Shown in pieces: positions 36,401 through 38,619 of a stretch of DNA of 38,619 nt (positions are counted from its first letter, which is position 1; every line of letters starts with the position of its first letter). The DNA is from an uncultured Nitrospiraceae bacterium (GTDB lineage Bacteria; Nitrospirota; Thermodesulfovibrionia; Thermodesulfovibrionales; Dissulfurispiraceae): positions 1-38,619 of the forward strand of contig CAMTVO010000059.1 of the NCBI GenBank assembly GCA_947085205.1. Direction: 5' to 3'. Made by a program: the position numbers.

Positions 36401-38619
36401 TATTAACTGTAGCACTGATGTCGCTCTGTCGCACTATTAACTATAGAACTATCGTTATCTCCATCTGCTCCATTTGAAATGCTCTTTCTTTATCTTTTCC
36501 TGAAGCTTGATTATCCCTTCCATTAAGGCCTCCGGTCTCGGAGGACATCCAGGTATATACACATCCACAGGCAAGAATGTGTCACATCCCTGCACTGTGC
36601 TGTATGTGTTGAATATGCCTCCGCTGCATGCACAGCTTCCCATAGATATTACATATCTCGGCTCGGGCATCTGGTCATAGACTCTCCTTACTATCGGCGC
36701 CATCTTCTTTGTGACTGTGCCTGCAATGATTACAAAGTCCGCCTGTCTGGGTGATCCCCTGAAGATTACTCTCAATCTGTCCAGGTCATAGTGTGACGAT
36801 CCCGCCGTCATCATTTCTATGGCGCATCAGGCCAAGCCAAAGGTCATTGGCCATAATGACGACAGCCTTCCCCAGTTCACTATCTTGTCAAAGCTGGCTA
36901 TGATGGTGTTGGCGCCTGGGATTACTTTCAACCCTTCTTCTACTTCTACCAATGCCGTTGTTCCGTCTATTACCATATTCCCTCACCTCCTGTTTTTCAG
37001 TCCCACTTGAATGCTTCTTTTTTCCATGCGTATATGTAACCAACCAATAATATAGATATGAATAACATCATCTCTATCAATGCGTAAAGACCTATTTTCT
37101 CATAAACAATCGCCCATGGATATAAAAAAACCGCTTCTACATCGAATATTACAAAGAGCATCGCAATAATGTAAAACTTGATGCTGAATCTGTATCTCGG
37201 CTCTCCTACCGGCGGGTTTCCTGATTCGTAAGCAAGCAGCTTCTCTTTGTAAGGCCTCCTCAGCCTGAACAGGTTGCCCACAAACAATGCCCCTGCTCCA
37301 AAGGCAAAGGCTATCATCATTATGATCAATACGGGTAGGTACTCTGTGGGTATGTAACTGCCTGGCGTCATTGTATTTATGCTCGGTGGGTTCATACTCA
37401 CCTCGATTTACAAAATTTTTACATCAAAAACGCTCTATTTATACTGCAAATTATAAACCCTTGTCAAATAAAAAATATAAATGTAAGAATAAGAAATCGC
37501 TTGCTTTATAACAACAAAAACAACACTCTAAATGGTTTTAAAATCACCGGCTGAAGTAAAATCATGCACTTTCTAAAAAAGTCGATTTGTCTAAATTATT
37601 GGATAAGCTTTTCAATAATCTTGTCGACCTTGATCCTGTTAAACTCAAAACCAAGATCTTTCTCGCTTAGCCCCATTGCAAGTCCAATAACCTGGGTAAA
37701 ATAAAGCACAGGCAAGTTGAACTCCTTCCCAACTCTTTTCCCGACCAGTTTCTGGTTATTTTCATAAGCTATGCAGCATGAAGGACAGGCAACAACCATT
37801 GCATCCACTCCTTTATTGGATAAACATTCAAGTTTCTCCGCCGCAAGCCTGAAGCTTATATTCTCGGCTGTCCCCATTATTGTCAGGCCGCAGCAGAGGT
37901 TTTTATTCGGATAATTAATAGCCCTTGCACCGGTAATATTTATAAGTTCATCAATGGTGAACGGGTTTGTAGGGTCATCAAAGCGACCATGAGCATGGGT
38001 CGGTTTCATATAGTGGCATCCGTAATGAATCCCAAACTCCAAAGACGCTAACGGAGTTGCAATTTTATCTCTTATACTATCCGGCCTATAATCTTCATAT
38101 AAAAACCTTGCAAAATGCTTGACCTTTACTTTACTGGTGTATTCTTTTACTCCAAGAGACTTTAACTTTCCATTAACCTGCTCTCTCAGTTTTTCATCTT
38201 CAAGATACTCCTTTGCCTCTGAAAGGATTGCCATACATCCGGTACAGACGCCGATGATATCCATACCCTTTTCTTCTGCTATGGCGAGATTACGGGCAGC
38301 CATAAGAAGAGCGGCAAAAGAGTCCATTGATTTCACAGGGAATCCGCAGCAACTGAATTCAGGAATATCAACCAATTCTATGCCGAGGATTTTGGCAAGA
38401 TTTCTCGTAGATATCTCATATTTTAATGCCTTAACAGGTGTTGCGCAGCCGGGATAAAAGGCATATCTCATAAAATCTATTTCTCCTTCTCCACTATTTC
38501 AAATATCATGGCTACAACAGAAGGTTCCTCTTGAATTGCAGCAAGTCCGGCTTTCTCCCTTTTCTTGTTATCCATTGGGATAAGTCTACCTGTCCTCAGC
38601 AGGGTATCTTTCTGCGATA

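Follow-up and report, generated by a model that had tools for sequence, protein, structure and literature searches.

Predicted selenocysteine ligation of Fe-S cluster N2 in bacterial NuoB, with a candidate counterpart in haptophyte NDUFS7

The window analysed here, the whole 38,619-nt stretch of contig CAMTVO010000059.1 from an uncultured Nitrospiraceae bacterium (assembly GCA_947085205.1), carries a nuo operon on its minus strand. The nuoB gene (36455–36976, minus) lies between nuoA (36997–37401, minus) and nuoC-D-E-F-G-H-I-J-K-L-M-N (22776–36301, minus), and each of these neighbours is an intact open reading frame that matches its family. The initial annotation had nuoB as a frame of 173 codons that is interrupted once, by a TGA at codon 50, and translation bears this out: the sole internal stop is a TGA at 36827–36829 (minus), within the motif FGLA-TGA-CAIEMM, and reading it as selenocysteine (Sec) gives a protein of 173 aa with Sec at residue 50. 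Read through, the product scores 241.8 against TIGR01957 (cut-off 142.7) and 249.4 against NF005012 (cut-off 116). A Shine-Dalgarno sequence, AGGAGG (36986–36991, minus), stands 5' of the nuoB ATG, and inspection of the sequence upstream of Met55, where the called 119-aa piece starts, reveals no evident Shine-Dalgarno. The stop codon of nuoA, 20 nt upstream of nuoB, is a TGA that is used normally. An HdrB-like gene (37596–38471, minus) lies immediately 5' of nuoA on the same strand. The nuoB–nuoC spacer (36302–36454) contains short direct and inverted repeats with a AGTGCGACAG-like unit, whose very high depth in two runs points to a genome-wide repeat family.

Alignment to Yarrowia NUKM (query residues 25–165 on chain residues 60–201) pairs residues 50, 51, 115 and 144 with C85, C86, C150 and C180, the four ligands of cluster N2 in the accessible text of PMC8042128. 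Codon 50 thus maps to C85, and the earlier placement of the TGA at the first Cys of the tandem N2 pair stands. The remaining ligand positions are occupied by Cys51 (36824–36826), Cys115 (36632–36634) and Cys144 (36545–36547), all on the minus strand, so that all four are retained, with predicted Sec instead of Cys at the first. The same source describes the tandem pair as strained, C85 as the more mobile of the two in a mutant structure, and the cluster as partly disconnected in the reduced T. thermophilus enzyme, and it ties tandem Cys ligation to cluster stability (PMC8042128). By homology, this mapping implies a selenolate ligand on N2.

The TGA codon is crossed by a 1,122-nt contig from one public run, with 2 differences, and by a 284-nt contig from another, with none; one of these two runs may be the window's own source. 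Positions 36827–36829 are free of differences among the 40 listed from public-run contigs (56 more exist). The agreement of contigs from other runs at the TGA argues against an assembly error. Codon 69 of nuoB (36770–36772) encodes Arg (AGA) at an almost invariably Gly position; contigs of runs X1, X3 and X10 carry the Gly base at 36772, so the AGA may be an assembly error or a strain variant. The single RNA run gave only contigs of diverged relatives (share 0.13) and no expression support for this gene.

This genome has a complete set of bacterial Sec genes. The tRNA-Sec gene selC (anticodon TCA) lies in the window (10334–10431, plus strand), and selA (contig C30), selB (C28) and selD (C19, itself with one TGA) each score above their family cut-offs. 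Genome-wide reassignment of UGA was considered and ruled out: TGA terminates 317 of 1,078 long open reading frames, so the genetic code is not reassigned. A second nuoB (C28:23212-23730), 84% identical to the window copy, has its TGA at the same codon (23581–23583), in agreement with the earlier statement that the nuoB of a second, NuoEFG-less operon shares it. With both copies apparently using Sec, no Cys-type backup was found in this genome. The surrounding complex I-like operon (C28:12088-26439), which lacks nuoEFG, starts with a molybdoenzyme-like gene (692 aa) and a ferredoxin-like gene (170 aa), continues with nuoB-D-I-A-C-H-J-K and then encodes four antiporter-like subunits.

The Sec form had been called frequent in Thermodesulfovibrionia, and a sample of 301 genomes of this class, taken as the window's own from the labels of near loci, agrees: NuoB is present in 283 and the first-Cys TGA pattern in 65 (68 matches in 7 families), and a reversed-pattern control in the same 301 genomes gave 0 matches. 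Among the 150 NuoB matches listed for the class (211 more exist), 111 have no stop and 39 have exactly one TGA (38 of them at the first Cys), with TAA and TAG both absent; the earlier proportion of about one quarter is thereby reproduced in kind. The TGA stands at the first Cys in the 65 genomes; an exception is G208, the one genome of 301 with TGA or TGG at the second tandem Cys. Its nuoB (G208:C85:49621-49647; loci L198 and L321) reads Cys-TGA with the SECIS-type hairpin intact, and may be either a swapped Cys-Sec form or an error. A TAG in the nuoB of G335 was rejected as a ligand-codon variant, as it lies elsewhere in the gene. Because selB is found in 281 of the 301 genomes, its joint presence with the TGA is uninformative within this class; selB or selA is present in every one of the 65 TGA genomes, and the single one without a selB match has selA.

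Across 185,579 GTDB species genomes, a pattern slightly shorter than that of the earlier count returned 108 stretches with TGA at the first Cys, reproducing that count in kind, and in all 108 the frame stays open after the TGA, to the end of NuoB or of the locus, as had been reported. By record title, which may be wrong for metagenome-assembled genomes, 74 belong to Nitrospirota; the labels outside this phylum, noted before, comprise 17 Thermodesulfobacteriota, 9 'Deltaproteobacteria', 3 Chloroflexota and 5 others. Most of the 108 appear to be real Sec genes, as the initial annotation had them, and about two are probably noise: the genome of L053 has no selA or selB match, the hairpin test failed for L057, and each of the two genomes has a second, intact nuoB. 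In the class of Thermodesulfatator autotrophicus (63 genomes), 12 of 76 matches contain one TGA, at the first Cys in all three that were inspected. For the 40 TGA genes with measurable dS, pairwise comparison with the window's nuoB yields a median dN/dS of 0.053 (maximum 0.091) downstream of the TGA; nuoB is under purifying selection there. The TGA genes were picked by exact pattern, and related genomes are not independent. Of 76 longer loci, nuoE/F comes next in 38 and a Psr-like gene precedes in 17, suggesting that NADH-fed and EFG-less complexes alike use Sec. Databases hold TGA-type genes as fragments of 118–119 aa, of which BCB97029.1, a 119-aa 'hypothetical protein' of Dissulfurispira thermophila, is one. 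An NCBI Nitrospirae NuoB (P0006) has Gly at the first ligand position, where GGA may be a misread TGA.

A metagenome search for TGA or TGG at the first Cys found at least 119 loci. Among the 120 matches listed, TGA outnumbers TGG by 117 to 3; about 77 loci are bacterial open frames, and a few are sporadic or not NuoB. Further bacterial clades of TGA-type NuoB are represented in these metagenomes by L260, L264, L278 and L313, by L203 and L258, and by L247 (FGIA-TGA-CAIEMMA.AASRYDWD and others).

Folding and codon conservation place a bacterial SECIS-like core hairpin at +17 to +33 after the TGA (36794–36810, minus). Its core has a 6-bp stem, including one G-U pair, and a 5-nt loop with GG, the loop lying 22 nt from the UGA, and a basal helix can lengthen it to +6/+40. 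Published bacterial SECIS geometry comprises a loop of 3–9 nt, a G in the first two loop positions, a distance of 16–37 nt from the UGA and a stem of at least 4 bp, and the window hairpin, with G at loop position 2, falls within each range. The published energy limit is −7.5 kcal/mol or lower; the core alone reaches −4.5 kcal/mol, and −8.4 to −9.9 kcal/mol with the basal helix. Taken as a single sequence, 55 nt of the window fold no better than shuffles (z = −0.07).

The strongest evidence for a putative SECIS element is the freezing of stem codons at the nucleotide level. Within the T-T-G-S-S segment (codons +7 to +11), 47 of 47 TGA genes share the same four stem codons (entropy 0) and differ in the loop codon alone, whereas the same four codons have entropies of 1.5–1.9 bits in 35 Cys genes; the background of 39 degenerate codons in the TGA genes has a mean of 1.61 bits and a minimum of 0.70. 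In the window nuoB, Ala replaces Thr at residue 58, turning one stem pair into a G-U pair that is still paired. At −4 kcal/mol, a threshold set, like the search window, after the data had been seen, a bacterial SECIS-like hairpin occurs in 112 of 112 TGA genes (a set without L057) versus 14 of 69 Cys genes; applied to the whole of this genome, that test accepts 74 TGA sites, mostly spurious. At −7.5 kcal/mol the counts are 50 of 112 and 5 of 69. Other lineages place different stems around the same loop GG, in at least three registers, so covariation was counted in one register only, where 36 of 36 cells are paired and two pairs show compensatory change (10 rows, 6 distinct). A synonymous-shuffle test by hairpin type was weak, with 0–10 of 40 shuffles equalling the real hairpin. 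In five Cys genes that lie among Sec rows of the tree, the stem is exactly that of the TGA type, and three further cases of Cys genes whose stem is intact or decaying, L178, L186 and L196, come from genomes without a selB match; this pattern suggests repeated Sec-to-Cys reversion in nuoB. Cys-type genes that retain an intact or decaying stem include L121, L138, L181, L184 and L196, together with L178 and L186.

The Sec machinery, the specificity of position, the purifying selection downstream and the stem codons frozen only in TGA genes together support Sec decoding, and on this comparative evidence Sec is almost certainly inserted at residue 50 of bacterial NuoB. We put the full reading, insertion plus predicted Sec ligation of N2, at roughly 0.9. 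We propose that SelB with Sec-tRNA binds the small in-frame hairpin 17–33 nt after the UGA and that the ribosome would then insert Sec at residue 50. Full-length NuoB would assemble into the 14-subunit, proton-pumping complex I, and the C28 copy would enter the module without NuoEFG. N2 would be held by Sec50, Cys51, Cys115 and Cys144, placing one selenolate on the quinone-reducing [4Fe-4S] cluster. Selenium terminal ligands hardly shift the potential of model clusters, as cited in the accessible text of PMC3760896, favouring stabilisation over a large potential shift and suggesting that the functional effect may be small. The likeliest, if speculative, benefit could thus be stability at a strained, labile tandem site, through the greater length of an Fe-Se bond and through a ligand that remains deprotonated and could rebind or resist over-oxidation. 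Sec appears to be optional in NuoB, as Cys forms occur within the same families.

The alternative that survives best keeps Sec insertion but makes it nearly neutral or regulatory: NuoB, and with it complex I, would become selenium-dependent while the chemistry of N2 stayed essentially unchanged. We consider this reading doubtful, though weighty. Cys forms dominate the class (the 111 of 150 matches listed that lack a stop), Cys and Sec forms are interleaved on the tree with 29 changes, at least four of them forced by starred branches, the model-cluster potentials point the same way, and the accessible text of PMC3760896 proposes a similar regulatory idea for Sec-containing NifD. Against it, the first Cys is a nearly exclusive site (65 versus 1 class genomes), the same site recurs in separate bacterial clades and in eukaryotes, and both copies in this genome have the codon; such exclusivity and recurrence suggest site-specific chemistry. 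Far less probable is decoding of the UGA as Cys or Trp by a near-cognate tRNA or a mischarged tRNA-Sec, with no selenium involved. A UGA with a downstream hairpin can promote generic read-through, and the window hairpin is weak, but TGA is the only stop used and is aligned to an essential Cys, the GG sits in a small loop at bacterial SECIS distance on several independent stems, and the trait is essentially limited to Sec-using genomes. Least credible of all is a pseudogene, a sequencing error or a split gene making 49-aa and 119-aa products, which is how databases annotate it and for which sporadic stops (L053, L057, and the TAG of G335) offer some precedent, but which is at odds with the same codon in both paralogues and more than 100 species, a dN/dS of about 0.05, an intact operon, the contigs from other runs, the loss of both tandem ligands that a split would bring and the lack of an evident Shine-Dalgarno before Met55.

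Selenocysteine ligates the [2Fe-2S] cluster of VhuD. MvhD/VhuD/FrhD and HdrA selenoproteins, like NuoB, would place Sec in Fe-S electron-transfer proteins of anaerobes (PMC13188914, Table 1; accessible text of PMC13518236), but their folds differ from that of NuoB, and Sec197 of HdrA in the M. maripaludis structure is described in the latter text as part of a Cys-Sec bridge, not as a cluster ligand. A predicted precedent for Sec as an Fe-S ligand is NifD, in which Sec62 of the α-subunit was predicted to ligate the P-cluster in three species including Thermodesulfatator indicus (accessible text of PMC3760896). In both cases, an invariant Cys that ligates an Fe-S cluster for electron transfer is predicted to be replaced by Sec in thermophilic anaerobes; protein and cluster differ, and, judged against that text, Sec-NuoB is far more widespread and belongs to a proton-pumping respiratory complex. 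[NiFeSe] hydrogenases offer a further parallel, as weak hits make NuoB a homologue of the small hydrogenase subunit and NuoD of the large one, but in those enzymes Sec belongs to the large subunit, where it binds Ni, whereas that of NuoB would sit at an Fe-S cluster in the small-subunit homologue. The selenoprotein listed as subunit E of 'NADH:ubiquinone oxidoreductase' (PF02508, COG2209 NqrE) is also a subunit of a respiratory NADH:quinone oxidoreductase, but belongs to the Na+-NQR/Rnf membrane family, unlike complex I NuoB. With canonical NuoB/Nqo6/PSST (NDUFS7; PF01058, TIGR01957), our protein shares the domain family, operon position and four N2 ligand positions, and it differs in having UGA, with a downstream SECIS-like hairpin, at the first tandem ligand.

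With high probability, NuoB represents a new family of selenoproteins, located in the complex I core. The initial annotation had described it as missing from current lists, and neither NuoB nor PF01058 appears in the complete 119-family Table 1 of PMC13188914 (2026). Term searches of deep-Sep (main text and four supplements), the BSepDB main text, and Haft and Gwadz turned up no entry on Nuo or quinone; the accessible text of PMC10779653 and PMC13518236 does not mention Sec in complex I; and literature searches on Sec in NuoB or NDUFS7 and on new selenoprotein families listed no earlier report of this kind. None of the 120 NuoB homologues retrieved contains a U residue, and the search of NCBIfam 20.0 yielded no model for a Sec-type NuoB.

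The metagenome matches also include a mitochondrial-type group, 28 of the 120 listed (27 by regular expression, 21 of these distinct, plus L213), with N-terminal extensions that resemble targeting peptides and GT-AG introns, identified by eye, after VMIVAG in L214, L276, L288, L306 and L317. All other Cys codons in the group are TGC or TGT and the terminal stop is TAA, TAG or TGA, the last ending the same open reading frame in L224, L238 and L268; an in-frame UGA thus replaces a conserved Cys codon in an otherwise standard code. In a tree of 269 rows and 129 columns, run in quick mode with codon 50 set to C in all rows, these genes group with Cys-bearing NDUFS7 of animals and protists in a eukaryotic clade (support 99) that is separate from the clades of bacterial Sec genes. 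The tree resolves little inside the Nitrospirota clade and includes no Cys relatives for the small bacterial Sec clades, whose origins may or may not be independent. The nearest named proteins are haptophyte. A Chrysochromulina parva gene model matches L270/L272 and omits 24 residues around the UGA codon, and C. tobinii KOO23862.1 ends exactly before it. Among short relatives, all 88 strong hits, with 76 distinct ends and identities as low as 49%, terminate exactly at FGLA, and 13 weak hits do not.

From these genes we consider Sec in Chrysochromulina-type haptophyte NDUFS7/PSST, separate from bacteria, a likely candidate; the UGA at the same Cys in haptophyte NDUFS7/PSST is new here. Haptophytes are rich in Sec, with 96 genes in E. 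huxleyi in the accessible text of PMC7539508, whose main text on the algal selenoproteome lacks the terms NADH, ubiquinone, NDUFS7 and PSST. The coding region after the algal UGA has no frozen stem like the bacterial one, and an Rfam scan of 16 algal loci gave nothing relevant, with about 20 nt of 3' UTR each, too short for a SECIS element. Cys forms are common in both the bacterial and algal groups: NDUFS7 of Diacronema lutheri and Tisochrysis lutea has Cys, and of the 15 members listed in the Chrysochromulina cluster, 4 have both full length and a Cys. Full-length Cys-type Chrysochromulina proteins (P0124, P0250, P0256 and P0257) may be alleles, paralogues or translation artefacts. More broadly, the first tandem ligand of N2 was probably recoded to Sec convergently, a step we hold with less assurance than the bacterial reading, in bacteria (Nitrospirota, Thermodesulfobacteriota and Chloroflexota-like) and in nucleus-encoded NDUFS7/PSST of prymnesiophytes (Chrysochromulina and relatives), and perhaps in a second protist lineage. 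The latter, a second eukaryote-type group with the same TGA (KVDDLVNY..RKGSIWP), comprises L206 and L261. Haptophyte nuclear NDUFS7/PSST loci with UGA at this Cys include L207, L213, L214, L224, L229, L233, L238, L252, L256, L268, L270, L272 and others, and P0152, P0245 and P0264–P0351 are haptophyte NDUFS7 proteins whose public gene models are cut short or leave out the motif.

There are several implications. First, the strained tandem-Cys ligation of N2 is a conserved, unexplained feature beside the complex I quinone site, and natural replacement of S by Se at the more mobile ligand could serve as a built-in probe (77Se EPR/ENDOR, Se-EXAFS, anomalous scattering), with natural Sec/Cys NuoB pairs for comparison. 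Second, Sec-NuoB would add a family to the current lists and correct many split or truncated annotations. Finally, if the haptophyte reading is true, abundant algae of the sea and of fresh water would have a complex I that is a selenoenzyme, and NDUFS7 would be the first mitochondrial respiratory-complex core subunit to contain Sec; selenium would tune or protect the quinone-reducing cluster and tie algal respiration to selenium supply, which could be tested in cultured Chrysochromulina tobinii and C. parva.

Other TGA read-through sites occur in this genome. We take one on C22, by its motif, to be an FdhA selenoprotein, and one on C2 presumably encodes a DsbA/DsbC-like UxxC selenoprotein. A further candidate, at C38:37745 (plus strand), has 301 codons before and 123 after the TGA, the context IPDG-TGA-PSPNR and a hairpin of −9.7 kcal/mol, and may represent an additional selenoprotein.
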